Of a stretch of 54,968 nt of DNA, positions 136-54,888 are shown piece after piece. Position numbers and translations under genes: made by a program. Position 1 is the first letter of the stretch. The number at the start of each line of letters is the position of its first letter. Source of the DNA: a virus (lineage: Duplodnaviria; Caudoviricetes); IMG/VR virus record IMGVR_UViG_3300026097_000029, positions 1 to 54,968 of that record; one strand, written 5' to 3'. The notes beneath the pieces were generated by a model. It saw only the letters and a list, made by a program, of their open reading frames with translations, did not search any database and was not told the origin of the DNA.

Positions 136-197
136 TTTATTTGTGTTATACATTGTTGTGCATAGTAGCGGATTATTAACGAAAAAAAATTAATAGA

Positions 198-680
198 ATG
201 AAAGACAAAAAAGTATTAGATGTGTGTTGTGGACCAAAAGGAATGTGGTTCGATAAACACGATGAAAGGGCATTGTATTTAGACAAGCGTAGAGAAACGC
301 ACATTGATACATATCCTTGCGGAACAAAAACAAATATAATTGACCCTGATATTATAGGTGATTTTACGGATATTAAACAACCTGCCAATTCCTTTTGGCA
401 CGTGGTTTTTGACCCACCACATATTAAGCAAAACAATACAAGCCAAATAACAAAGAAGTACGGAAGTTTACAAGGAGATTGGCGTGAGATGTTAAAACAA
501 GGATTTAAAGAATGTTTTAGAGTGCTAAAGCCAAATGGTACACTAATATTTAAATGGAATGATTGTAGGTTTCCTGTAAAAGAAATACTTGCTTTAACAG
601 ACCAAAAACCACTTTACGGACATAAAAGCGGCAAGAAAATGGGAACGCATTGGATATGTTTTATAAAAGACGAAGCGTAG
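198..680 (+). CDS. SAM-dependent (DNA) methyltransferase-like protein
   Basis: VLDVCCG SAM-binding motif, FDPPH catalytic-type motif, ECFRVLKPNGTLIFKW. Confidence 0.8.
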   Translation: MKDKKVLDVCCGPKGMWFDKHDERALYLDKRRETHIDTYPCGTKTNIIDPDIIGDFTDIKQPANSFWHVVFDPPHIKQNNTSQITKKYGSLQGDWREMLKQGFKECFRVLKPNGTLIFKWNDCRFPVKEILALTDQKPLYGHKSGKKMGTHWICFIKDEA

Positions 681-691
681 CTATTATGCAC

Positions 692-758
692 AACATTTCT
701 GCGATATGAAACGTTGCCTAGTGGGACTGAGTAAATGCAATGTTTTATATTGCGTGTT
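692..758 (+). repeat. attC-like hairpin (AAC...GTT)
   Basis: AAC-atttct-GCGATATGAAACGTTGC...GCAATGTTTTATATTGC-gt-GTT; 17-bp stem with 3 G.T pairs. Confidence 0.85.
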
Positions 759-794
759 GGTTGACGATAGTGAACAGTATTAAAAAAATGAATT

Positions 795-1442
795 ATGTAC
801 AGAAGTAAAATAGAACTCCATAACGTTGATTGTTTGCCGTTTATGAAGCAATGCGTGGATAAACAATTTGACCTAGCAATAGTAGACCCACCTTATGGTA
901 TTGCACGCGCAGGACAAACAGAAACCTTTACAAAAAATCCTAAACATAAGCGCAAAGCACACGATCAAAAAAACTGGGATAATGCAATACCTAGCCAAGA
1001 GTATTTTGATGAGCTAGAACGTATAAGTAAGAATCAAATTGTTTGGGGTGCGAATTATTTTGTTGCCCATTTAAAACACGGAACAATGGGTTGGGTTGTT
1101 TGGGATAAAGGACAACACGGATTAAGTATGAGCGATTGTGAATTGGCTTACAGTAGCTTTAATAGAGCAACACGAATACTGACGTTTAATAGATGTCTAA
1201 TAGCTCAAAAAGGTGGAAGTATACACCCAACCCAAAAGCCTGTAGAGTTATATAGGCACTTACTTAATAAATATGCAGAAAAGGGCAACAAAATATTTGA
1301 TTCGCACTTGGGAAGTGGAAGCATTGCCATTGCTTGTGATGACTTAGGTTTTGATTTAGTAGCTACTGAAATTGATAAAGACTACTTTGAAAAGGCAAAC
1401 AAAAGGATAGACCAACATAGAAGGCAACAAACCCTTTTTTAA
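795..1442 (+). CDS. DNA N6-adenine/N4-cytosine methyltransferase (beta class)
   Basis: IVDPPY, HPTQKPVELY and FDSHLGSGS motifs. Confidence 0.9.
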   Translation: MYRSKIELHNVDCLPFMKQCVDKQFDLAIVDPPYGIARAGQTETFTKNPKHKRKAHDQKNWDNAIPSQEYFDELERISKNQIVWGANYFVAHLKHGTMGWVVWDKGQHGLSMSDCELAYSSFNRATRILTFNRCLIAQKGGSIHPTQKPVELYRHLLNKYAEKGNKIFDSHLGSGSIAIACDDLGFDLVATEIDKDYFEKANKRIDQHRRQQTLF

Positions 1443-1500
1443 TATTGCAACCAACACCGAATAACAGAACCTTACAAATTAAATTTAACAAACTTAAGCA

Positions 1501-21221: not shown

Positions 21222-23839
21222 CGTTTTCTTTTAATATTCATTGTTATTTTCTTTTTCTCTTTCTCGACTGTGTACTTATTTCTATTTACAGCCATTAAAG
21301 CTAAACCACTACTAATTGTAGCATCAAATTTAGTCCTTTTATTTATATCAAACTTCATCCAATCTTTTAGAGTGTCTACGAAATACATATCTCCGTAATC
21401 GTTTGTTTCTAAGTTGTAGCCTATATGTGTATTTACATAGCTTTCAATAGCAGAAGAGTGCATAAGCTTCATGTCTAAACTAGAGTTTGGTACACCACCT
21501 AATTCTATTTCGGTAGGAGATAGCTTACTTGTTGGCTTATCAAATCGAGTTATAGAGTAGTTTCTGTAACCCCTGTTTTTAAAGTGATACAGCAGTCTAG
21601 GTTTGTTGTTCTCTATAAGTATAGGCATACCATAAAAAACACAAGCCATTAAAACATCTTCAAAAAACTGTTCTGCTGTTTTTGGTCTAGCAATGTATTC
21701 TAAGAAAAAATGATTACTAGGTACGTCTCCTATAGAAAACCTAGTTACTCCATGCAACGCACCTTTTGAGCCACGCTTAGAGTCTGAACTACTTGTTCCG
21801 TATTTAGTTACAGAGTCTACTGTTCCTGATATATCGTAGCTATCACAACCAAACGCACCCATAGTGTCGTTTAAAGGTGCTTTACTGTAACCACCATAAC
21901 CCATTCTAGTTTCATACTGATTCTGCATACTTTTTGGCGGTATCCACGTAACTTTAAAGTTACCTTTTTCGCTTTCATTCCAAACTACATTGGTATCAGG
22001 TATTCCGTTTTCCCAAGAGAAGTTTCCTTGTTTTACTTTTTTAGCAAAGTCTGCATCTTCGCAATATTGTATTTGCTCTTGTATTCTCTCTAAGCTAAAT
22101 AAACAAGTTTCTGCTTCGTCTCTTAAAGCGTCTTTTAACTTCATTGGGTAAGCTCTTAACTCTTCGTTATATGCTACTTCGTTTTGCTTTCTCTTTTGCT
22201 TTCTAATAGCTTCTAAGTATTGTACAGCACCTATTTTTTTAATACTGCCTTGTACATTTTCAAAGAAACCACCGTCAGGTACTACTTTATGGCACTTACC
22301 ATATTTATCTGTAAACTCAGTCATGTTTTCGTGAGCAGGTAAAAAGTAAGAGTATAAACCTGTAGGTGTTCGTTCTGTTACTTTGTCTCTTTTGTTTATG
22401 TTTGAGCCACTTAATATCTCTATAAATTCCGCACCACCTTTTTCGTGAGCAGCTACAGTTGAGCCTAAAAAAGCTTTACCTACAATTTTACCACCTTCAT
22501 CGAAAGTTGGTGATATCTCACCCCAATGTTCTAAGTAGTTGTGTGGTTTTTTCCACTTGCTGGCTTCGTCTCCTAGATACCTGTACATTTTCTGACCGTC
22601 ATAGCTATCGTTTTTAGTAGGCTGATAATCTATTATAGTGTTTAAGTAATCGTCTGTATTTGTGTCTTTCTTTTTTTTAGATGCTTTAGTGTTGTCTGAA
22701 GGTTTAGCAAACTCTATTAGTTTAGGACTATCTATTTTACCCTTAACAACAGGTATAAAGAAAAAAGGTAAGTTTCTTAATGCGTAAGTTAGTTTTATGT
22801 ATGCTTTCTTAGCATCGTTGTCTGACTTAGATGTAATACCAAAGTTAGCGTTTTTAGTAGATGTAGCTTCATTTAACATTCTAAACACTTTTTCATAAGT
22901 AAAACCAGTACGCCTAGACTTTACGAATATCTGACCTAAGCATCGTTTATCTAAAACACAAGCTTCTGTATGGTAAAACATATTAAGTTGTGCGTACCTA
23001 AAGTCCATATAACCGCCATCGTCTGCCATTTTACACCACTGTAAGGCAAAGTAATGACTTCCTGTTAAGTACACAGGCTCTCCGTTATTCATAAACCAAA
23101 CACCTTCTCGTCTACGCTTAAACTCTTGCATTATATACTCGTAGTAAGCGTCTTGATTTTCTTGTGTTAAGTTTTTAGGCATAGGTGTTCTTTCCCAAAA
23201 CTGATGCCTTTGTCTTTTATCTGAAAACAATATATCCTTTTTATCAGGTACTTTAGGTAAAGCTATTCTTAAGTTGTCTAAGGTTATTATTTCTCCTATT
23301 GTACCTTTAGGGCATATTATAATTGCTTTGTTTTGTGTGTCGTACCAAGACTTGTGATAGTTTTTCTCAGGATAAAATTCTTGATTAGCGAACTTTTCAG
23401 GGAAACCTATTTTAAACTCTTTATCTTCTAACTGGTAGTTTTCTGCTTCTAGTTGAAGTCTTAACTCTATTAAGCTTGCATCTATTTCGTTTACCGCTTC
23501 TAATAAAAATACTTTACCTTGAGATGCTAAGTAATGTTTTTCTTCGGGTATCTCGCTATAATCAATTTCCATAGCAAAATAACTTCTTAATGTATTAAGT
23601 GCTACATCTCCTGCAACAACTAATCGCTCTACGTAATGTTTAAGTTTTTCGGGATTGGGTTGGTTGTTTGAGTTATCCCATTTATTAATCATAACTTTAG
23701 CGTACTTAAAGCTATCTACTTTACTACGCATTAAGTTTTTGATTTTTTCTGGCTCAATTTCAGACAAGTCTATTTGATACTCTAATCCTTGAATTATAGT
23801 ATTAATTGCACTTTCTATATCTTTACTTAACCCTATCAT
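21218..23839 (-). CDS. terL: Terminase large subunit with extended N-terminus
   Basis: KSRRTGFT (Walker A-like), YLGDEASKW (Walker B), GCDSYD and FDATISSGLA nuclease motifs. Confidence 0.9.
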   Translation of the reverse strand: MIGLSKDIESAINTIIQGLEYQIDLSEIEPEKIKNLMRSKVDSFKYAKVMINKWDNSNNQPNPEKLKHYVERLVVAGDVALNTLRSYFAMEIDYSEIPEEKHYLASQGKVFLLEAVNEIDASLIELRLQLEAENYQLEDKEFKIGFPEKFANQEFYPEKNYHKSWYDTQNKAIIICPKGTIGEIITLDNLRIALPKVPDKKDILFSDKRQRHQFWERTPMPKNLTQENQDAYYEYIMQEFKRRREGVWFMNNGEPVYLTGSHYFALQWCKMADDGGYMDFRYAQLNMFYHTEACVLDKRCLGQIFVKSRRTGFTYEKVFRMLNEATSTKNANFGITSKSDNDAKKAYIKLTYALRNLPFFFIPVVKGKIDSPKLIEFAKPSDNTKASKKKKDTNTDDYLNTIIDYQPTKNDSYDGQKMYRYLGDEASKWKKPHNYLEHWGEISPTFDEGGKIVGKAFLGSTVAAHEKGGAEFIEILSGSNINKRDKVTERTPTGLYSYFLPAHENMTEFTDKYGKCHKVVPDGGFFENVQGSIKKIGAVQYLEAIRKQKRKQNEVAYNEELRAYPMKLKDALRDEAETCLFSLERIQEQIQYCEDADFAKKVKQGNFSWENGIPDTNVVWNESEKGNFKVTWIPPKSMQNQYETRMGYGGYSKAPLNDTMGAFGCDSYDISGTVDSVTKYGTSSSDSKRGSKGALHGVTRFSIGDVPSNHFFLEYIARPKTAEQFFEDVLMACVFYGMPILIENNKPRLLYHFKNRGYRNYSITRFDKPTSKLSPTEIELGGVPNSSLDMKLMHSSAIESYVNTHIGYNLETNDYGDMYFVDTLKDWMKFDINKRTKFDATISSGLALMAVNRNKYTVEKEKKKITMNIKRKR

Positions 23840-24390
23840 ACTTTAGCACATACATCTCTTGTGTCTATCTTAATAAACTCTTTACCTAAAACATTAAAGT
23901 AATAGTTTCTGTAATCTTCGTAAACTATAGTGTCTCCTTTTTTTAAACCTAATTCGTTTTCTTGCTTATATGAATTAACAGCTACAATGCCTACGTTTTC
24001 GTTTAAGTGTTTATGAGAAAACTCATCATTGTTAGGCACTCGTTCAAGAAATAAATAAGGGTCAATAGAAATCATTTCTCCGTTTTTAATAACCATATAA
24101 GGGTCTTGGGTAAAGTATAAGTCATCAAAAATATGCTTAATACCATTGTTCATTTCCCCCATTTGTGTACGACCTACTCTAAATGTATTGTGGTGTACTA
24201 CAATTAAATCTCCCTTTTCAATTATCCCTTTGTAGTCTTGTGGCGTTTCAACTACTTCTGCAACTCTGTTAGTATGTTCGTGGTTGTCTATATTATCGTT
24301 AACAATAATGTCTAAACCATCAATATCCATAGTCGTTCTATACTTGTCGCCTTTGTGTGGTTTAATTAAAAAGTAAAATGGACTTTTCAT
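23836..24390 (-). CDS. GroES-like protein (probably two tandem domains)
   Basis: FLIKP...AEVVETP...IEKGDLIVVH and FLERV...VGIVAV...LKKGDTIVY patterns. Confidence 0.55.
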   Translation of the reverse strand: MKSPFYFLIKPHKGDKYRTTMDIDGLDIIVNDNIDNHEHTNRVAEVVETPQDYKGIIEKGDLIVVHHNTFRVGRTQMGEMNNGIKHIFDDLYFTQDPYMVIKNGEMISIDPYLFLERVPNNDEFSHKHLNENVGIVAVNSYKQENELGLKKGDTIVYEDYRNYYFNVLGKEFIKIDTRDVCAKV

Positions 24391-36516: not shown

Positions 36517-38100
36517 ATGAGTAACATTAAAGAAGTTCGTTTCGGCTTAGATGCTAGGTCTGAAATTTTAAAAGGAGTAAACACAGTAGCAGATGCTGTA
36601 AGCTCAACTATGGGTGCAAAGGGTAGAAACGTGTTAATTGAAACACAAGGCGGTTTACCTAAAATAACAAAAGACGGAGTTACCGTATCCAAAAATATTT
36701 TTTTAGAAAGCCCATTAGAATCTTTAGGTGCAGAAATTATTAAACAAGCTGCTGAGAAAACCGTAGAAGATTGTGGGGATAGTACAACTACTACTGTTGT
36801 ATTAGCTAGGGAGCTAATGAATTTAGCAGAAGTAGAAGTAGAGAAAGGTGCACACCCTATCTTACTTAAAGAAGGTATAAGTGATGCGGTTAAACAAGTT
36901 ACAAATCATTTAAAAAGCAAAGCATTAAGGCTTAAAAAAAGAGACTACAATAATGTAGCTAGAATATCTGCAAACAACGATAAAGAATTAGGAGACACAA
37001 TAGCTAAAGCATTTAAGTTGGCAGGAAAAAATGGCGTGGTTACTTACGAGCGTTCTATGGACGAAATTACATCTGTAAAGAAAAGCAATGGTTTAAAGAT
37101 TGACAGGGGTTTACTTAATCAGTACATGGTTACTGATGAGAAAACCAACCGAATGGAATTAGAGAATCCTTACATTTTTGTTTGTAATAAAAAAATAGAA
37201 TCATTCCAACAAATTATCCCTTTGTTTAAAAAATCTAAACAAGAAGATAAATGGATTTTGATTATAGGCGAAATGGAGCGAAGTGTAGCTAACCTATTTA
37301 CTGCTAACATTATAAAACACAAACTAAAAGTAAGATTTGTAGATGCTCCGTCTTTTGGGAGTAAACGTAATGCTTTAATGGAAGATATAGCTACTGCCAC
37401 AGGCTCTATCTTAGTAAAGAATGAAGGTACAGACAATATTGAATCTGTGTGTTTAGATTACTTAGGAACTGCAAAAGGATTTACTTGTTCGGACAAAGAA
37501 TCTTTTTTAGATGTAGACAAAGAAAGATATCAAGACGCTATTGATTTAAAAGTTAACGAGTTATTAGAATTAAAAAAGAACACTAAAAAAAGCATAGCAT
37601 CTAAGTTTTTAGATGAGCGTATTGCTAAGTTAAGCTGTTCTATTGCTACCATACAAGTAGGTGCTATATCTGATGTGGAGTTAGAAGAAAAAATAGACAG
37701 AGTAGACGATGCAGTTAACGCAACTCAATCGGCAATAGAAGAAGGTGTTTTAGTTGGTGGTGGTTTAGCGTTGTTTAATGCTAGCTACAAAGTTAGTTAT
37801 AGTAATGATAATCATAAAGATTATAAGTTAGGGTTTATGATAACCATAAACGCAATCAGGAAACCCATAAAGCAAATACTTACAAATGCAGGTGCTAATG
37901 TAGACGATGTTATTTCTGAAATAGAAAACAATCAAGACGAAAACATAGGATACGATGTGCTATCTAACAAAATGGTAAATATGCTTAAAGCAGGTATTAT
38001 TGACCCACATAAAGTAATACGATGTGCATTGCAAAACGCAGCAAGTGTTTCGCAAACATTTTTATTAACAGACACATCAATTAATATAAAAAGAGCGTAA
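36517..38100 (+). CDS. groEL: Chaperonin GroEL (phage-encoded)
   Basis: GVNTVADAVSSTMGAKGRNV, ITKDGVTV, GDSTTT, EEGVLVGGG, GIIDP. Confidence 0.95.
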   Translation: MSNIKEVRFGLDARSEILKGVNTVADAVSSTMGAKGRNVLIETQGGLPKITKDGVTVSKNIFLESPLESLGAEIIKQAAEKTVEDCGDSTTTTVVLARELMNLAEVEVEKGAHPILLKEGISDAVKQVTNHLKSKALRLKKRDYNNVARISANNDKELGDTIAKAFKLAGKNGVVTYERSMDEITSVKKSNGLKIDRGLLNQYMVTDEKTNRMELENPYIFVCNKKIESFQQIIPLFKKSKQEDKWILIIGEMERSVANLFTANIIKHKLKVRFVDAPSFGSKRNALMEDIATATGSILVKNEGTDNIESVCLDYLGTAKGFTCSDKESFLDVDKERYQDAIDLKVNELLELKKNTKKSIASKFLDERIAKLSCSIATIQVGAISDVELEEKIDRVDDAVNATQSAIEEGVLVGGGLALFNASYKVSYSNDNHKDYKLGFMITINAIRKPIKQILTNAGANVDDVISEIENNQDENIGYDVLSNKMVNMLKAGIIDPHKVIRCALQNAASVSQTFLLTDTSINIKRA

Positions 38101-38102
38101 TT

Positions 38103-38357
38103 ATGAAAGCAATGTTTCAAAAAGTGATTGTTGAAAAAATAGGAGAAGAAACAACAAACGATAGCGATTTTATTGTGTCTGACTATAAAAAAGAAAAGTT
38201 TTGTAAAGGTAAGGTGTTCTCGTCAGGCGATATGGCTACTGAGATACAAAAAGATGATATAGTTTGGTATGATAAAAACAGAGCATCAAATATAAATATA
38301 AATGGAAAAATGTTTGATGTTATGGATAAAATGAATATATTTGTAGTCGGTGATTGA
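38103..38357 (+). CDS. groES: Co-chaperonin GroES
   Basis: 84 aa immediately after groEL; KVIVEK...GKVFSSG...IQKDDIVWY pattern. Confidence 0.75.
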   Translation: MKAMFQKVIVEKIGEETTNDSDFIVSDYKKEKFCKGKVFSSGDMATEIQKDDIVWYDKNRASNININGKMFDVMDKMNIFVVGD

Positions 38358-45076: not shown

Positions 45077-46080
45077 TTAAATGCAACATGGTCTACTAGC
45101 ACACTATTATAGTATACAATGTGCTAGGGTAGCTTAGTGCATTTTTTGTTTTATTTGTTTATACATACCTTTTCTTTGTAAATAATCTTGTATTGAATAA
45201 ACATACACTTCTTAGTCTTATAAGTGGGATAGTTTTTAGTCAAATGAGTGGTATTTTTTAGTCTCTTGAGTGGGCTATACCCCCAACCTACGTTATCCAC
45301 ATCTTTCCCAAAACTTTTCTCATTCGCATAGGGGGGTGCAATTCTGAGCACATAGTGTCGAAACTTTTTAGCTTTTTTGTCCTGGACTTTTTTCAATCAA
45401 CAGAACCAATATAAAACTAATACGATTGTACTCCTGTATATTTTACGTTGATGCTAAATGTTTTTTTAGGTGAGACTAAATATTTTTTTAGTGGGGAATA
45501 AATAACCAAAAAAAAATCTTTACATAAAACCACAAACGAAATTCAGCGTCAATTTTTAACTATTGTATTAAATATGTAAGTATATATATATATTATTTAT
45601 ACGTATTTAATGTATGTATGTATTAAGGATTTAACTGTTTTAATATATATATGCTAAATAGGTTAAATATGTATGTATTTGATTTTTAGTGTATTAATAC
45701 AATTTAGATTAATTAATTTGTTAAAACTTTGTTAAATAAGATAGGTTTATTTGGTTGTAATTTGAGTTTGTTTGTATGTTTGCAATGTAAACAAAAACGA
45801 AAATACTTCACTTGTTTATGAGTTCCTTGAAATACTTACTAGATTAATTAATAGATTACATTTATAATAGTGTTGCATTATATTGCTTCCGTATTTATAC
45901 GAACAAACATTTATAAAATACTTTGATTAGTTAGTTTAGTAACTCGAAAATAAAACTAATTAAAACTATGCTTTTATATTTAAAGTAGCTGAGAACGTTT
46001 GAAAGCTAAAAAATATACAAATAGCTGAGTATGTTTCGCGATATACTCAGTATCTAAATATTATTAACCTTAAATAAAAT
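45077..46080. other. AT-rich non-coding region (possible origin or genome end, with early promoter)
   Basis: No credible long ORF; hairpins at ~45094-45131 and ~46024-46049; TATGTTTG at 45775-45782. Confidence 0.45.
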
Positions 46081-46355
46081 AACATGAAAAAATTAAACAA
46101 ATTACAAGCAATTTTAAAACCTACAGTATTAACGATTATTGTTTTATGTGCCTACTTACTGTTAAGCCATCAAATAAGCTAATATTAAACCTTAAAAAAT
46201 TAAAAAATGAAACTAGAAAAAACAATTACCTTAAAAACTGGCTTAATTATCCAACACTACAGCCACAAAAACACAACTAAAATAAGAATAATAGAACCTA
46301 AAAACTAAACATTATGAACACAGCAGAATTTTTAAACATCAAAAAATAAAAAACT

Positions 46356-49455: not shown

Positions 49456-49633
49456 CTTTAATAAAGAACGAGTAGTGTGGCATAACAGCAAATAATATGG
49501 GTAGTGGCGATAAAAAGGGTTAACAGTATCGTATGCAAACCAATAACCCCGAAAAACACGGTGAAAGTCCAGTTGTTAGGCATACTTAGCCATTACCTAT
49601 ATTTATTATTGAATGTCTTTTTTAATTGCATAT

Positions 49634-49756
49634 AACGTTGAGTATATGGCAAGTAGCCGAGATAAAGCACAAACGATGCAAAAAGTAAACAAATTTAATA
49701 ACAGGCAGATGGTTCCAAAAAGACCCGTAACACGGCTATTTGCTATATACAGTGTT
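49634..49756 (+). repeat. attC-like hairpin
   Basis: GTATATGGCAAGTAGCCG (49642-49659) / CGGCTATTTGCTATATAC (49733-49750). Confidence 0.85.
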
Positions 49757-49773
49757 ATGTGGCGTTTTTAATT

Positions 49774-50016
49774 ATGGAAGTAGTAGATTTTAGTAACAGA
49801 TTATTTCACGATATACCAACACAGGACAATCCTGCTTACGGGAGTGAAGAGTGTATAATGATTGTAAAGGATAGCCAAAGACAAGCTTTATTTGCTGTAC
49901 TACATATTGAACCCGTAATAGACCCAATGGAAGACGAATCTGTTACTAAAATATGTGAGGTGTATAAACTTAATAATGCTATTAAGATTGCTAAGTGGTT
50001 CGCAAATGCCACATAA
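49774..50016 (+). CDS. Cassette-borne hypothetical protein
   Basis: ATG 49774; the TAA stop lies inside the terminal TAAC. Confidence 0.65.
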   Translation: MEVVDFSNRLFHDIPTQDNPAYGSEECIMIVKDSQRQALFAVLHIEPVIDPMEDESVTKICEVYKLNNAIKIAKWFANAT

Positions 50017-50061
50017 CATCTCGGTGCTATGAAATCGTTTTAATGTTTTATAGCACGTGTT
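50015..50061 (+). repeat. Minimal attC-like hairpin
   Basis: GTGCTATGAAA-TCGTTTTAATG-TTTTATAGCAC. Confidence 0.85.
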
Positions 50062-50163
50062 ACCCACTGGTGCGACTTTAAAGAGCAAACTTTTATTTAA
50101 GAACTGAAACTTTTTCTTTTCTTTTTTGAGCGTTGGCAAATATTAATTTGAAAAATTAAAATT

Positions 50164-50970
50164 ATGGAACAAATACAATTACACAAAGGATATTGCGAAG
50201 ATTACTTTACCCAAATACACGATAAAAGCGTAGATATGGTTCTTTGTGATTTACCTTACGGAACAACAGATTGTAAATGGGATAGTCAAATAGACTTGAC
50301 TTTTCTATTTAGCGAATATTACAGAGTGTTAAAAAAGAACGGTGCAATAGTGTTATTCGCTTCACAGCCCTTTACATCTACTTTGGTATGTGAACACGTT
50401 AAATACTTCAAGCACGAGTGGATATGGAAGAAAAACGCAGGAAGTAATTTTGGAACTGTAAAATACCAACCATTTAAAGAACACGAAAGCATACTTGTAT
50501 TTAGTAATGGAGGTGGGAAGGTTTGTTACAATCCTATAATGGAAGAACGTGCTGAAAGTGGTAAAGCGAGAGTAAAGACCAAGGTTAATTATAATACAAG
50601 TGCAGAAGTTTACGGAAGTGGTGGATTAATAGGCGATAAAGGAATAAGTAGTAATAGACCTGATTTAAGATACCCAAGTAGTGTACAGAAATTTAATAGA
50701 GAGCGAGGGTTACACCCAACACAAAAACCACTTGACTTGATAGAGTACTTAATTAAAACTTACTCTAACGAAGGCGAATTGATACTTGATAATACAATGG
50801 GAAGCGGTACTACTGGTGTTGGTTGTGTAAATACAAATAGACGATTTATAGGTATTGAGTTAGAAGATAAGTATTTTTCTATTGCAGAAGAACGAGTAAA
50901 AAAAGCGTGGGAAGAAAAAAGAAAAGAAAAAGATTTACAAGCACAAACTTTATTTGGAACACAGAAGTAA
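50164..50970 (+). CDS. DNA N6-adenine/N4-cytosine methyltransferase (beta class)
   Basis: CDLPYG, HPTQKPLDL, LDNTMGSGTTG. Confidence 0.9.
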   Translation: MEQIQLHKGYCEDYFTQIHDKSVDMVLCDLPYGTTDCKWDSQIDLTFLFSEYYRVLKKNGAIVLFASQPFTSTLVCEHVKYFKHEWIWKKNAGSNFGTVKYQPFKEHESILVFSNGGGKVCYNPIMEERAESGKARVKTKVNYNTSAEVYGSGGLIGDKGISSNRPDLRYPSSVQKFNRERGLHPTQKPLDLIEYLIKTYSNEGELILDNTMGSGTTGVGCVNTNRRFIGIELEDKYFSIAEERVKKAWEEKRKEKDLQAQTLFGTQK

Positions 50971-50982
50971 GCACTTGTTGGT

Positions 50983-51216
50983 AACACTATGGTTATATGA
51001 GTAGTTTATTTACGGATTTAAAAATAGAAATATGAAAACAGTTTTAATACATTATAAAAAATGGGTAGAAGCACCGCACCCAATGTTAGACGGTGAATTT
51101 ATTAAATGTAGCCAAGTGGTCGAAGTATTAAAGCTGACTGACCTAAATGATATGTTTAAAAATATAACTAAGATTGAAATACTAAGCGAGTAAATGAATT
51201 ACTTATATGACGTGTT
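50983..51216 (+). repeat. attC-like hairpin with an ORF in its loop
   Basis: 22-bp arms 50992-51013 / 51190-51211 with four G.T pairs. Confidence 0.85.
51032..51193 (+). CDS. 53-aa hypothetical protein inside a hairpin loop
   Basis: Read manually: MKTVLIHYKKWVEAPHP...KIEILSE; stop falls in the right arm. Confidence 0.6.
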   Translation: MKTVLIHYKKWVEAPHPMLDGEFIKCSQVVEVLKLTDLNDMFKNITKIEILSE

Positions 51217-51253
51217 GTGTGTAGTACGGGCAAATAAGCAAAAACTTTGAATT

Positions 51254-51802
51254 ATGAAATTAGATTTAATTACAAACAAAGCAGAAAAAACAACTGCACG
51301 AAATGAAAATGATGAGTTCTATACTCCAAATTATGCAATAGAGCCTTTGTTAAAATATTTAAAACCTAATAGTTATGTATGGTGTCCTTTTGATTTGGCG
51401 AAAAGTAACTTTGTAAAACTATTAGTTGCAAATGGGCATAAGGTTTTAAATACGCACATCGAAAACGGTTTTGACTTTTTTGAATATGAGCCACCAAGTG
51501 AAATTGATTACATAATAAGTAATCCGCCTTACTCACTAAAACATGAAGTATTTAGCAAACTGTTTGAATTAGGAAAACCATTTGCAATGCTTGTAGGTGT
51601 TGTTGGATTGTTTGAAAGCCAAAAAAGATTTACAATGTTTGCGGACAATGATTTTGAAATAATGTATTTTGATAAGCGAGTAAGTTACTTTAAGGATTAC
51701 GCAGACGTAAAGCCAAAACTTAACCCACCGTTTTCGAGTGTATTTTTAACAAAGGATATACTACCTAAACAAGTTGTTTTTGAAAGGATAACTAAAAAGT
51801 AG
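51254..51802 (+). CDS. Phage adenine methyltransferase-like protein
   Basis: DEFYTP, WCPFD, DFF, ISNPPYS motifs. Confidence 0.8.
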   Translation: MKLDLITNKAEKTTARNENDEFYTPNYAIEPLLKYLKPNSYVWCPFDLAKSNFVKLLVANGHKVLNTHIENGFDFFEYEPPSEIDYIISNPPYSLKHEVFSKLFELGKPFAMLVGVVGLFESQKRFTMFADNDFEIMYFDKRVSYFKDYADVKPKLNPPFSSVFLTKDILPKQVVFERITKK

Positions 51803-51812
51803 TATTACTCAC

Positions 51813-51898
51813 AACGGTAGGTATATGGTTAGTGCGCCTACCACAAACGATTGAATTAAGCACTAACATAACTTGGCGCATTAACTATATACATTGTT
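51813..51898 (+). repeat. attC-like hairpin
   Basis: GTATATGGTTAGTGCGCC / GGCGCATTAACTATATAC. Confidence 0.85.
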
Positions 51899-51920
51899 GT
51901 GTGCCGTTAATTTTAAGGAT

Positions 51921-52184
51921 ATGTTGAATATAGAAGCGGAAGGTTTTGTATTTAAGTATGAAGAAAAAGGCAATCATAACAAAGCCTACACAAAGCCGTA
52001 CACAAATCACTCAAGAGGGTATTCGGATAGAATGATTGATGTTATTTATAATGACAAAAACAATTGGGTATTAATTTGCCAAGGAGATGATGAAACCCCT
52101 TGGGGTGATTGGGAAACAATGTTTGCTGGACAAATACAAAACCAACAAGATTTTAAAAAAGTGCTTGAAATGGTCATCGTTTAA
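51921..52184 (+). CDS. Cassette-borne hypothetical protein
   Basis: ATG 51921; stop within the terminal repeat TTAATGGCACACAAC. Confidence 0.65.
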   Translation: MLNIEAEGFVFKYEEKGNHNKAYTKPYTNHSRGYSDRMIDVIYNDKNNWVLICQGDDETPWGDWETMFAGQIQNQQDFKKVLEMVIV

Positions 52185-52192
52185 TGGCACAC

Positions 52193-52315
52193 AACGGCTC
52201 AGTATAAAAAATCGTAGCGGATAGATACCGCTTAAATGTCAAATTATAAATAACTTAATAAAATGGAACAAACATCGAATAACAGAAACCCCCGCTATGT
52301 TTTTTATACATTGTT
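52193..52315 (+). repeat. attC-like hairpin
   Basis: GTATAAAAAATCGTAGCGG / CCGCTATGTTTTTTATAC. Confidence 0.85.
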
Positions 52316-52463
52316 GGCGGTAGTGCTTTTAATTACTGCCTGTTCGGGTGATAGCGAAAGTAGCTCACAATTTTCTGAATGGCTTAAACAACCGATAACA
52401 GAAATGAGCATATTTGAATTGATATTGGTTGTAGGTTTTGTTGGACTGCTTACACGGTCTTAG
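52263..52463 (+). CDS. Small putative lipoprotein reading through the site
   Basis: Hydrophobic stretch ending in lipobox-like ITAC; C-terminal TM helix. Confidence 0.55.
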   Translation: MEQTSNNRNPRYVFYTLLAVVLLITACSGDSESSSQFSEWLKQPITEMSIFELILVVGFVGLLTRS

Positions 52464-52473
52464 CATTACCGCC

Positions 52474-52586
52474 AACGTAATTGTATATGGTGCGTTGCAT
52501 CACAAAATTTAATTAATAAAAATAAAGATAATGGAAGTAGAAGAACGATATAAAAAACCACAAGGCAATGCACTATATACATTGTT
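52474..52586 (+). repeat. attC-like hairpin
   Basis: GTATATGGTGCGTTGC / GCAATGCACTATATAC. Confidence 0.85.
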
Positions 52587-52740
52587 AGCAGCAGTTAAAC
52601 TTGCTTATGGGCAATACAAACTTGATGTGGACTACGTAAAAAATAAAAGTAATATATGGGAAGGGAAGCCATATAGTTGGGGATTAACTCATTGGGCAAT
52701 AGCAAAACATAGGTTCTATTGGTTTGTCATTAAACGCTAA
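52531..52740 (+). CDS. Small hypothetical protein reading through the site
   Basis: Starts in the hairpin loop; ALYTLLAAV is encoded by the arm and GTT junction. Confidence 0.55.
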   Translation: MEVEERYKKPQGNALYTLLAAVKLAYGQYKLDVDYVKNKSNIWEGKPYSWGLTHWAIAKHRFYWFVIKR

Positions 52741-52748
52741 TTGCTGCT

Positions 52749-52805
52749 AACGGACGAGTATATGCGAAGTGCTGACGATAGGAAGCATTGCGTATATACA
52801 TTGTT
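52749..52805 (+). repeat. attC-like hairpin
   Basis: GTATATGCGAAGTGCT / AGCATTGCGTATATAC. Confidence 0.85.
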
Positions 52806-52841
52806 AGGTGCAGTACGGTATTAATATAACAAAACTAAAAT

Positions 52842-53606
52842 ATGAAACAAACAGAATTATTCTTATTTGACAAAGTAGTGAACATTGACGGAGATGTAGC
52901 GAAATTCAAAAACCGAGAGATAAAAGCAAAAGAAATCTTTACTATACGTGAGATTGACAAGAAAATAGCTTACGCATTTATTAAACAATACCACTACTTA
53001 AAAGATGCTAAGTTCTTTGCAAAATATTCTTATGGACTTTATATTGATAATGTACTAGTTGGCTGCTCTACTTTTAGCAACCCACAAGGTATAAGTGCAA
53101 TGAAAAGTTGGTTTGGATTACCTAATAGCGACCAAAGTGTATTAGAACTTAGCAGACTGTGTATGTTACCTAAACTTAATGGTACAAACGCAACAAGCTA
53201 TTTACTTGGCAATAGTATGAAGATGCTAAAACAAAAGGAAGTTAAGGCTGTAATTACATTAGCTGATGATAGTAGGCACGTTGGAAGTATTTACCAAGTT
53301 TGCAATTTTAAATACTATGGCTTAACTGATAAAAAAACTGATTTCTTTTGTGCTGATGGTAGAGTGAACCCAAGAGGCAAAACAAAGGATTTAGAAGGTG
53401 TTTGGCTACCAAGAACACAAAAGCATAGATACGCTTTTTTATTGGATAAGAAAATGAATGTTTTGCTGAGTGAGAGTGAACGACCTACACTTGAAGATAC
53501 AAGCGAATATGATTGCTGTAACGGAACTAATAAGGTTTTTGATAAGCGATTTAATAAGCACTACACTTGCCCAAAATGCACAGGTGTAATTGAAGAACTA
53601 ATGTAG
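52842..53606 (+). CDS. Mom-like (GNAT-fold) DNA modification protein
   Basis: QYHY, LELSRL, LADDSRHVGSIYQVCNFKYYG, KHRY. Confidence 0.75.
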   Translation: MKQTELFLFDKVVNIDGDVAKFKNREIKAKEIFTIREIDKKIAYAFIKQYHYLKDAKFFAKYSYGLYIDNVLVGCSTFSNPQGISAMKSWFGLPNSDQSVLELSRLCMLPKLNGTNATSYLLGNSMKMLKQKEVKAVITLADDSRHVGSIYQVCNFKYYGLTDKKTDFFCADGRVNPRGKTKDLEGVWLPRTQKHRYAFLLDKKMNVLLSESERPTLEDTSEYDCCNGTNKVFDKRFNKHYTCPKCTGVIEELM

Positions 53607-53616
53607 TATTGCACCT

Positions 53617-53806
53617 AACTGGTCGGTGATAACGCTAGTTGCGATGGATTAATAAACTAAAAATAAAAAAAATGGATATAGATAAAATAGTAGATAGCAA
53701 AGTGATAACAATGACTAATTTAAGCGGTAAAAAATCAAAAGTGCTATTTCTTAAAAACGAAACTGAAATAGAAGCATTTAAAGAGCAATTAGCGTTATTA
53801 CGTGTT
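53617..53806 (+). repeat. attC-like hairpin
   Basis: GTGATAACGCTAGTTGC / GCAATTAGCGTTATTAC. Confidence 0.85.
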
Positions 53807-53925: not shown

Positions 53926-54829
53926 AACGTATTGGTATATGGTTAGTGCCGTGTAAATAGCACAGACTTTTAAATTAATAAAAGAAGTAATAATTAAAAT
54001 ATTTTTTATGAGCGTGGGCAAAAAATATAAAGTAGTTGAAGTAACTTTAAATGATATAGAAGAATGGCTATTGTATAAGCACTATGCCAAAAGAAAATGC
54101 AATGTAATGTTTGCTTATGCTTTAGTTGATAATAATGAAATTATTGGTGTTTGTACTTTAGGTATGCCACCTACTCCATTTTTTAGTAAATTGTTTGATA
54201 AAGGGACTTACTTAGAATTAAACAGACTAATAACAAATGATGGTCTACCTAAAAATACACTTTCTTTTTTTGTCGCAAATATTTTAAATAAGATAGGTGA
54301 TTATGTGGTTGTTTCTTATTCTGACCCAAATAACGGACATAATGGATATATTTATCAAGCTACTAATTGGATTTATACTGGTGCAGGTAGGGTAAACCAA
54401 AAAGACAAAAGAGGTGTAAATAAGTTTTTTTACAATGGTAAAGAATACCACGAAAGGCATATACCAGAAACAATGTCAAGATTAGGATTTAATATAGATA
54501 ATGATAAAACAAAAAACGAAAATTGGATAAATAACGGTGGTGAGATAGTACCACAAAAAAGAAAACATAGGTATTTTTATATTTGCGGTAATAAAAGGTT
54601 TGTAAAAAAGAACAAGAAAATAATAGAAAATTATTTTGACATTTACAATTACCCAAAAGAAGAGAATACAAACTATGATGCAAGTTATATTGTAAAAAAC
54701 AAATATATAAAACCTAAATTGTTTTGATAAAAACAAAAGAGCGTGGGCAAAAAAATATTTTAATTATGGACAAACAGACACAAATTATTGAATTAAGCAC
54801 GGACTTAGGCATTAACTATATGCCGTGTT
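53926..54829 (+). repeat. attC-like hairpin split by a nested gene insertion
   Basis: GGTATATGGTTAGTGCC (53934-53950) / GGCATTAACTATATGCC (54808-54824). Confidence 0.8.
54008..54727 (+). CDS. Mom-like (GNAT-fold) DNA modification protein
   Basis: KHYAKR, LELNRL, SYSDPNNGHNGYIYQATNWIYTG, KHRY. Confidence 0.8.
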   Translation: MSVGKKYKVVEVTLNDIEEWLLYKHYAKRKCNVMFAYALVDNNEIIGVCTLGMPPTPFFSKLFDKGTYLELNRLITNDGLPKNTLSFFVANILNKIGDYVVVSYSDPNNGHNGYIYQATNWIYTGAGRVNQKDKRGVNKFFYNGKEYHERHIPETMSRLGFNIDNDKTKNENWINNGGEIVPQKRKHRYFYICGNKRFVKKNKKIIENYFDIYNYPKEENTNYDASYIVKNKYIKPKLF

Positions 54830-54888
54830 GTAGCATCGTTTTAATGTGCTACAACACCGAATAACAAAACATTAAAAACATTAACCCT

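Follow-up and report, generated by a model that had tools for sequence, protein, structure and literature searches.

Gene cassettes with covarying terminal clamps in a flavobacterial phage: a probable integrase-less integron-type array

Results

Anatomy of the cassettes

Positions 144-1466 of the phage DNA analysed here probably form the end of a cassette array of integron type that has no integrase of its own (a CALIN) and belongs to the early region of a flavobacterial phage. The DNA is the whole 54,968-nucleotide viral record IMGVR_UViG_3300026097_000029, which we call the window. Its cassettes are recognized by a clamp, GTT-N7-GT ... AT-N7'-AAC, whose two arms pair over 14 bp with 13 Watson-Crick pairs and one G.T at a fixed place. 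The N7 is specific to the cassette and covaries across each gene. A strict detector (perfect N7 plus the G.T) finds six clamps on the + strand of the window and one, chance-like, on the - strand, against a mean of 0.07 per window over 200 shuffles.

We compared these clamps with a phage set made up of the window and at least 119 loci in viral contigs that match the left-motif pattern, most of them single chance matches. The set holds at least 39 strict clamps; two AT-rich ones were dropped, and at least 37 elements, from at least about 21 contigs, were kept. Pairing across the gene is 14 of 14 in the six window cassettes and, among the matches listed, in 37 of 37 kept elements. Among the same listed matches, the cargo ORF is co-oriented with the clamp in all 37, and 34 have a stop codon that begins within -3 to +10 of the 3′ arm. 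Start codons are found 3-37 nt past the 5′ arm in 25 elements and far inside the clamp in one; in the other 11 the start is 46-88 nt upstream of the 5′ arm and the ORF reads through it. The arms depart from the R-box consensus GTTRRRY / RYYYAAC as quoted by Qi et al. (2023, PMC9892861): conservation is limited to GTT and a purine at position 4, and positions 5-7 fit R/R/Y in about 46-63% of a set that includes some chance matches. A transposon or MITE, whose copies would share one terminal inverted repeat bound by a single transposase, does not fit: the relaxed set contains 61 N7 variants, and N7 covaries within each element.

Adjacent cassettes are separated by a 13-20 bp hairpin, which stands between the AAC of the first and the GTT of the second and has its mismatches at fixed positions. 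Two kinds of loop occur, a short conserved octamer and a long A-rich stretch, the latter often containing the next start codon. In an alignment of 17 short junctions, AAC and GTT are invariant and paired and are set off by unpaired spacers of about 6 nt (5′) and 2-3 nt (3′), and the consensus fold has a 13-bp stem with compensatory changes in 8 of 17 pairs. This layout is that of an integron attC site. Together with the pairing of each cassette's 5′ end with its own 3′ end, these attC-architecture junctions bear out an earlier note on this DNA, which had described a cassette grammar of integron type. A covariance model of the junction alignment, R1, finds six sites in the window, all on the + strand. 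By eye, the junction hairpins have no trailing T runs.

The 144-1466 region encloses two cassettes on the + strand, both of whose ORFs match DNA methyltransferase families, as had been proposed. In cassette 1 the 5′ clamp arm (154-169) pairs with the 3′ arm (680-695) over 16 bp with one G.T, at a pair probability of 0.99 and in the minimum-energy fold. The gene between them (198-680, 160 aa) matches phrog_954 with E 5.5e-62 and, weakly, Pfam N6_N4_Mtase, and its stop codon is overlapped by the 3′ arm. The attC-like junction that follows (681-769) consists of AAC, a spacer, a hairpin (704-717/737-750), a second spacer and GTT; it is one of the six R1 sites (37.1 bits, E 4e-5; 27.5 bits with filters off) and is supported by the fold. 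In cassette 2 the 5′ arm (754-769) pairs with the 3′ arm (1443-1457) as 10 bp plus 5 bp around a 1-nt bulge, the 10 bp having a probability of 1.00. Its cargo, an N6/N4 DNA methyltransferase of 215 aa (795-1442; phrog_67, 1.2e-37; Pfam N6_N4_Mtase, 2.3e-16), is about 72% identical in nucleotide sequence to a cassette in viral contig L094, and the 3′ arm starts at its stop codon. The flanking genes are on the + strand as well. The upstream one (1-135) runs off the contig start and had no homolog among the loci compared, and the downstream one (1501-1806, TTG start, 101 aa, no family) lies outside the array.

A longer array of clamped cassettes (49754-53619) lies on the same strand at the opposite end of the contig. 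Clamps delimit cassettes A (49754-50017), C (51214-51815, an EcoRI-like methyltransferase), D (51896-52195), E (52313-52476), F (52584-52751) and G (52803-53619, Mom family); those of cassette B (50057-50987, a methyltransferase) and cassette B' (50992-51211) were recognized by eye, as was an empty hairpin at 51821-51892. The best attC-like junction of the window is here (50004-50072, R1 61.7 bits), and the R1 model places others at 51802-51909, 52182-52326, 52463-52597 and 52738-52816.

Several other features of this half of the window deserve mention. A second Mom-family gene (54008-54727; PF25680, 1.9e-24) lies inside the array, which overall spans 49.7-54.9 kb, yet has no recognisable clamp. 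Just 5′ of cassette A is a conserved element of about 150 nt (49625-49779), 72-73% identical to contigs L041 and L120, which has by far the deepest coverage in two seawater runs and contains, by eye, a long junction-type stem and a 31-codon basic ORF. The reading frames of the small ORFs 52263-52463 and 52531-52740 run through the left flank and 5′ arm (…YTLL…), and the first of these ORFs begins, by eye, like a lipoprotein signal peptide. Between the divergent structural (-) and early (+) blocks is a noncoding, AT-rich stretch of about 0.9 kb with TATATA-type runs (45400-46350), probably the early promoter or origin region.

Host chromosomal arrays

We searched 151 genomes of the flavobacterial family containing a Flavobacterium MAG with R1 at a threshold of E<=0.001. 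Matches occur in 65 of them, at most 23 in a single genome; they often form clusters, and some lie at contig ends. Four host contigs (G022, G035, G105 and G145) start 17-48 nt ahead of a junction site, which suggests that assemblies break at these repeated sites and therefore that array sizes in draft genomes are underestimated. In five 20-kb host regions (L162-L166; further regions are L167-L196), co-oriented genes form long arrays that have the clamps and junctions described above. They carry typical integron cargo, including Cass2 (PF14526), glyoxalase, SnoaL-like, DUF4440 and ParDE genes.

A tyrosine recombinase stands at the start of the array in three of the five regions; its gene is intact in L163 and L164 and split in L162. 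The enzyme is IntI/Xer-like (NF040815, 216 bits; TIGR02249, 179 bits), about 357-390 aa long with an N-terminal extension, and scores under the integron-integrase cut-off (179-195 versus 265 bits). Relatives are found in 47 of the 151 genomes (E<=1e-60), and several adjoin R1 clusters on the same contig. TIGR02249 at E<=1e-40 matched none of 301 host-family genomes, nor any control genome. By eye, most of the 27 regions examined 3′ of the recombinase consist of a hairpin, a short spacer (CAATT-like in many) and the first GTT. Complete integrons are rare in Bacteroidetes according to the IntegronFinder 2 paper, and a review lists Bacteroidota among the integron-bearing phyla.

The strand of the cargo differs between the two kinds of array. 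Phage ORFs lie on the same strand as the clamp in 37 of 37 elements among the matches listed, whereas host ORFs lie opposite the G.T-bearing strand in 45 of 45 (39 distinct). The polarity of the structure is thus kept while the coding strand flips, which argues for a DNA-level feature.

This inversion weighs heavily against a reading of the clamps and hairpins as sense-strand RNA structure, in which they would act in an early polycistronic transcript as signals for processing, stability or start-codon presentation, much as RNase III stems in rRNA, one per cistron. The fold of 100-1520 is what such a reading would predict, as its minimum-energy structure holds both clamps (pair probabilities 0.99 and 1.00), the junction hairpin (0.93) and an outer 6-bp helix (0.84). 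Additionally, G.T is a wobble pair on the phage sense strand, 34 of the 37 elements among the matches listed have their stops at the 3′ arm, and starts lie just past the 5′ arm or in an A-rich loop. However, the host site is inverted relative to its genes in 45 of 45 cases and the fixed pair would be an A.C mismatch on host mRNA, the ORF runs through the 5′ arm in 11 of 37 phage cassettes among the matches listed, no Rfam family was found, and the other non-Watson-Crick pairs show no clear wobble bias. We consider RNA structure the least probable of the explanations weighed here and dropped it because of the inverted polarity of the host arrays.

Cassettes in other phages

Cultured Flavobacterium (Muminvirus) and Polaribacter phages have the same grammar, as do at least about 20 viral contigs besides the window. 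Most early genes of the Muminvirus and Lillamyvirus siphoviruses are clamped; their flank motifs differ from those of the window, and Muminvirus-type junctions gave no R1 match. Polaribacter phage P12002L has window-type junctions around methyltransferase and Mom genes. Of 20 loci in the genome collection with homologs of methyltransferase B, four have clamps, all on short MAG contigs; contigs of at least 45 kb among the 20 have none. By terminase, the nearest cultured relatives of the window phage are Elemovirus (60% amino acid identity), in which there are zero clamps and zero R1 matches and which are therefore unusable for an 'empty site' comparison. No close relatives were found via the C-terminus of the neighbouring 1928-aa protein. 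The window phage encodes GroEL and two GroES-like proteins (36517-38357 and 23836-24390, by PHROGs), and its Elemovirus relatives do likewise.

Cargo in the other contigs comprises methyltransferases of several families, YopX, WDGH and RNA ligase, and 22 of the 30 proteins scanned have no Pfam family. Because one viral contig (L104) carries a clamped RNA ligase (PF09414, 2e-17) and another clamped WDGH-domain protein, phage cargo is not confined to DNA-modification genes.

Cassettes are shared between unrelated contigs. Contig L005 contains a cassette with 95% identity to cassette C (51198-51828); elsewhere the two contigs show no similarity. The identity begins approximately at the left flank and stops at AAC, so that the shared segment includes about 11 nt of the neighbouring junction and not the whole attC. 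In contig L105 the cassette 1 arms and leader accompany cargo resembling methyltransferase B, and the same junction, arm, leader and ATG were found with a different ORF. Contigs from four seawater and estuary runs carry cassette C and the Mom cassette, followed by unlike sequence; the joints in these contigs, with sides of just 20-42 nt, look like motif matches and were not used.

Breakpoints of indels and replacements fall at the GTT and AAC triplets. In Muminvirus phages, blocks of 99-100% identity stop at TAAC|GTT or ...T|GTTA; mumin6-1 and mumin6-3 differ by an indel of one 506-nt unit bounded by TAACGTT, and other pairs behave likewise. Their arrays are identical in the 5′ part and variable in the 3′ part, and the 3′ flank is constant whatever the last cassette. 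The expectation of the earlier note that relatives would carry different cassettes inside the same boundaries is thus borne out in these comparisons. The breakpoints AAC|GTT and T|GTTA are compatible with the strand-specific G|TT crossover of an integron integrase. Variable methyltransferase content in Muminvirus is reported to go with plating efficiency on different hosts (PMC7077304), and that paper has no mention of inverted repeat, hairpin, stem-loop, palindrome or cassette. We found no description of such a clamp in the literature searched.

Homologous recombination in short conserved linkers could yield the same breakpoints, and an alternative to an integron-type array is modular shuffling through such linkers with no dedicated recombinase. 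As in the PeSLs of T4-type phages, junctions would then be regulatory hairpins, ordinary homologous recombination of the phage or host would delete, insert and swap genes between the short repeats, and the clamps would be a side effect. In its favor, the indels and replacements that distinguish close relatives coincide with intergenic motifs that recur, as at PeSLs; the breakpoints lie within 7-18-nt motifs common to all junctions; and the combination of an identical junction, arm, leader and ATG with a different ORF is what it would produce. Precedent exists in PeSLs, for which recombination between flanking repeats and mini-circles are described and no integrase was found (Arbiol et al. 2010, PMC2839356, in the accessible part of the text). 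We nevertheless regard linker-mediated shuffling as unlikely. It leaves unexplained the N7 covariation (37 of 37 among the matches listed), the fixed G.T and the invariant AAC/GTT, as well as the presence of the same sites beside a tyrosine recombinase and integron-type cargo in hosts.

Search for a recombinase in phages

None of the 37 window ORFs scanned in PHROGs matched an integrase; the adjacent IntI that characterizes a complete integron is absent from this set. No recombinase is annotated in Muminvirus mumin6-1. The proteins shared by the window and mumin are methyltransferases, a lysin and two weak structural matches only, with no recombinase common to these array carriers among them, which also fits linker-mediated shuffling. 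When the host array recombinase was used as a single query against viral contigs, there was no match. An alignment query returned 17 viral contigs with relatives of 24-50% that are without the N-terminal part; three of these contigs (L206, L208 and L209) have an R1 match within a few kb and may be prophages or chromosomal fragments. The recombinase relatives in the 17 contigs are no evidence that array phages encode the enzyme.

The outer repeat

The earlier note had singled out a symmetric outer inverted repeat around 144-1466 as an empty landing site, equivalent to an attI, and as the mark of a second, independent platform. The description itself is accurate. The left motif, TGTTAT-ACATT-GTT (144-157, + strand), and the right motif, AAC-ACCGA-ATAACA (1453-1466, + strand), are exact reverse complements over the nine specified bases; the left one starts 8 nt past the stop codon of the upstream gene (133-135), and 34 nt separate the right one from the ORF at 1501.

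The pattern TGTTATNNNNNGTT has seven matches on both strands of the window compared with 1.37 expected, a number that none of 100 shuffles reached, and six of the seven lie inside cassette regions. Among 121 pairs of left and right flanks (6-mer, N5), only the left flank at 144-149 matches the ATAACA flank perfectly, which is present at 1461-1466 and repeated at 54861-54866. As the chance of a perfect flank match is about 5.6e-4 per pair, the outer TGTTAT/ATAACA match is unlikely to be pure chance.

Each half of the repeat, however, overlaps other elements. GTT (155-157) and AAC (1453-1455) are already part of the clamps of their own cassettes (154-169/680-695 and 754-763/1448-1457). The rest of the left motif is the common left flank, an 11-mer, TATACATT, that precedes GTT in five exact copies in the window, all within arrays. 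The right motif is a recurring array-end flank with three copies in the window (1453-1466; 52271-52284, with one base changed; 54853-54866), each closing a run of cassettes. We conclude that the outer pairing is real but incidental, or at most an auxiliary flank helix, and is not a landing site. The repeat is largely a by-product of flank motifs, its right half being the array-end motif.

Evidence from elsewhere in the window and from relatives bears on the same point. An empty clamp with 11-bp arms and an 11-nt loop, followed by AAC-ACCGA-ATAACA, lies at 54825-54866 on the + strand (weak R1 match at 54809-54873; 23.1 bits, E 0.012). The proposed search for an empty site therefore succeeded for the right boundary, which is identical, but not for the left flank, which is CTATAT instead of TGTTAT and is non-complementary to the right flank at 54853-54866. 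Muminvirus arrays end in a constant flank without an outer inverted repeat. Among 27 host attI regions, TGTTAT stands shortly 5′ of the first GTT in one (L167). In the other 26 no outer repeat is present, and GTT is preceded, by eye, by a hairpin and a short spacer.

The separation of 48 kb, which had been part of the same proposal, is a contig-end artefact: the window spans one linear viral record from end to end, with an estimated completeness of 88%, and the two arrays sit at both its ends on the same strand. As the contig breaks between the arrays, they may belong to one platform as well as to two. The two contig ends have no terminal overlap, and a tblastn search for one gene spanning both gave a single weak, uninformative match (E 0.75) among the loci compared. 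Thus, despite an outer match that is exact, above chance and able to form a closing helix, and despite a right half that recurs at three array ends and is shared by the empty clamp, we find it very improbable that the outer repeat is a landing site marking a second platform.

An attI equivalent, if there is any, has the right-hand AAC-ACCGA-ATAACA motif as its sole candidate. If the phage cargo lies on the folding strand, with host cargo on the opposite one, the phage array would in integron polarity begin at its downstream end. The motif would then be located at the array's start, which is also the end where Muminvirus arrays vary.

Discussion

Clamped cassettes of common anatomy, with covarying arms, occur in phages and in host arrays that adjoin an IntI/Xer-like recombinase. 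In the phage arrays each cassette is bounded by GTT...AAC, its two terminal 14-nt stretches pair with each other, and an attC-like hairpin sits between cassettes. In the mechanism that we propose, the folded single strand, with its G.T, would be the substrate of a structure-specific tyrosine recombinase that the host may supply during infection, and the phage would thereby gain, lose and swap anti-restriction cargo such as methyltransferases and Mom. Both the action of a host recombinase at phage sites and the strand that it would use are inferences.

A broader hypothesis is possible, although we offer it tentatively and think it more doubtful than the array itself. Lytic flavobacterial phages would maintain integrase-less integron arrays of anti-restriction genes. 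The attC-type sites of these arrays and those of the hosts' chromosomal integron-like arrays would form one family, with the coding polarity inverted in the phages; the host recombinase would be borrowed for reshuffling, and the phage and host cassette pools would each be expressible only in their own contexts.

The closest published counterparts are phage CALINs. A screen of 10,705 phage genomes found 17 integrase-less attC clusters (Qi et al. 2023, PMC9892861), among them one in the virulent Polaribacter phage P12002L, which 'encodes two putative DNA methyltransferases'. With IntI1, recombination with attI1 was seen for one of the two sites of this cluster and was confined to the bottom strand. 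We infer that the published P12002L sites are window-type junctions of the kind seen here, as the methyltransferase region of that phage shares the junction type of the window. The likeness extends to a virulent marine phage without integrase that carries co-oriented small genes, including DNA methyltransferases, with attC-like hairpins between them. In contrast, the two predicted P12002L sites are in 'divergent directions', and the accessible part of the paper mentions neither Flavobacterium phages, a 14-bp clamp with a fixed G.T around each cassette, arrays as long as about 10 cassettes, nor host-family arrays.

Sedentary chromosomal integrons resemble the host arrays in having a tyrosine recombinase at the start, long co-oriented arrays and typical cargo. 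They share with all these cassettes the AAC/GTT ends and a cassette 5′ end complementary to its own 3′ site. The phage arrays differ in that their cargo has the opposite strand orientation with respect to the site and that no integrase, attI or Pc was identified in the phage; moreover, the paired R-box region is 14 bp here compared with about 7, and the host enzyme falls below the IntI cut-off. Morons are likewise accessory genes inserted between core genes but, to our knowledge, have no conserved flanking sites or array grammar. T4-type PeSLs (PMC2839356) are also repeated intergenic stem-loops in a hyperplastic early region. Unlike the junctions described here, they are direct repeats with a sigma-70 promoter and a terminator, and, as far as the accessible text of that paper goes, have no gene-spanning covarying clamp, AAC/GTT triplets or recombinase-bearing host counterpart.

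The opposite coding polarity of phage and host arrays was unexpected. The clamp GTT-N7-G...T-N7'-AAC provides a simple marker to delimit cassettes that standard integron models seem to miss. If our interpretation is true, it would provide a sequence-readable mechanism by which marine flavobacterial phages change their DNA-modification gene set, and would link phage accessory-gene arrays to a widespread, little-described integron-like system in the chromosomes of Flavobacteriaceae.
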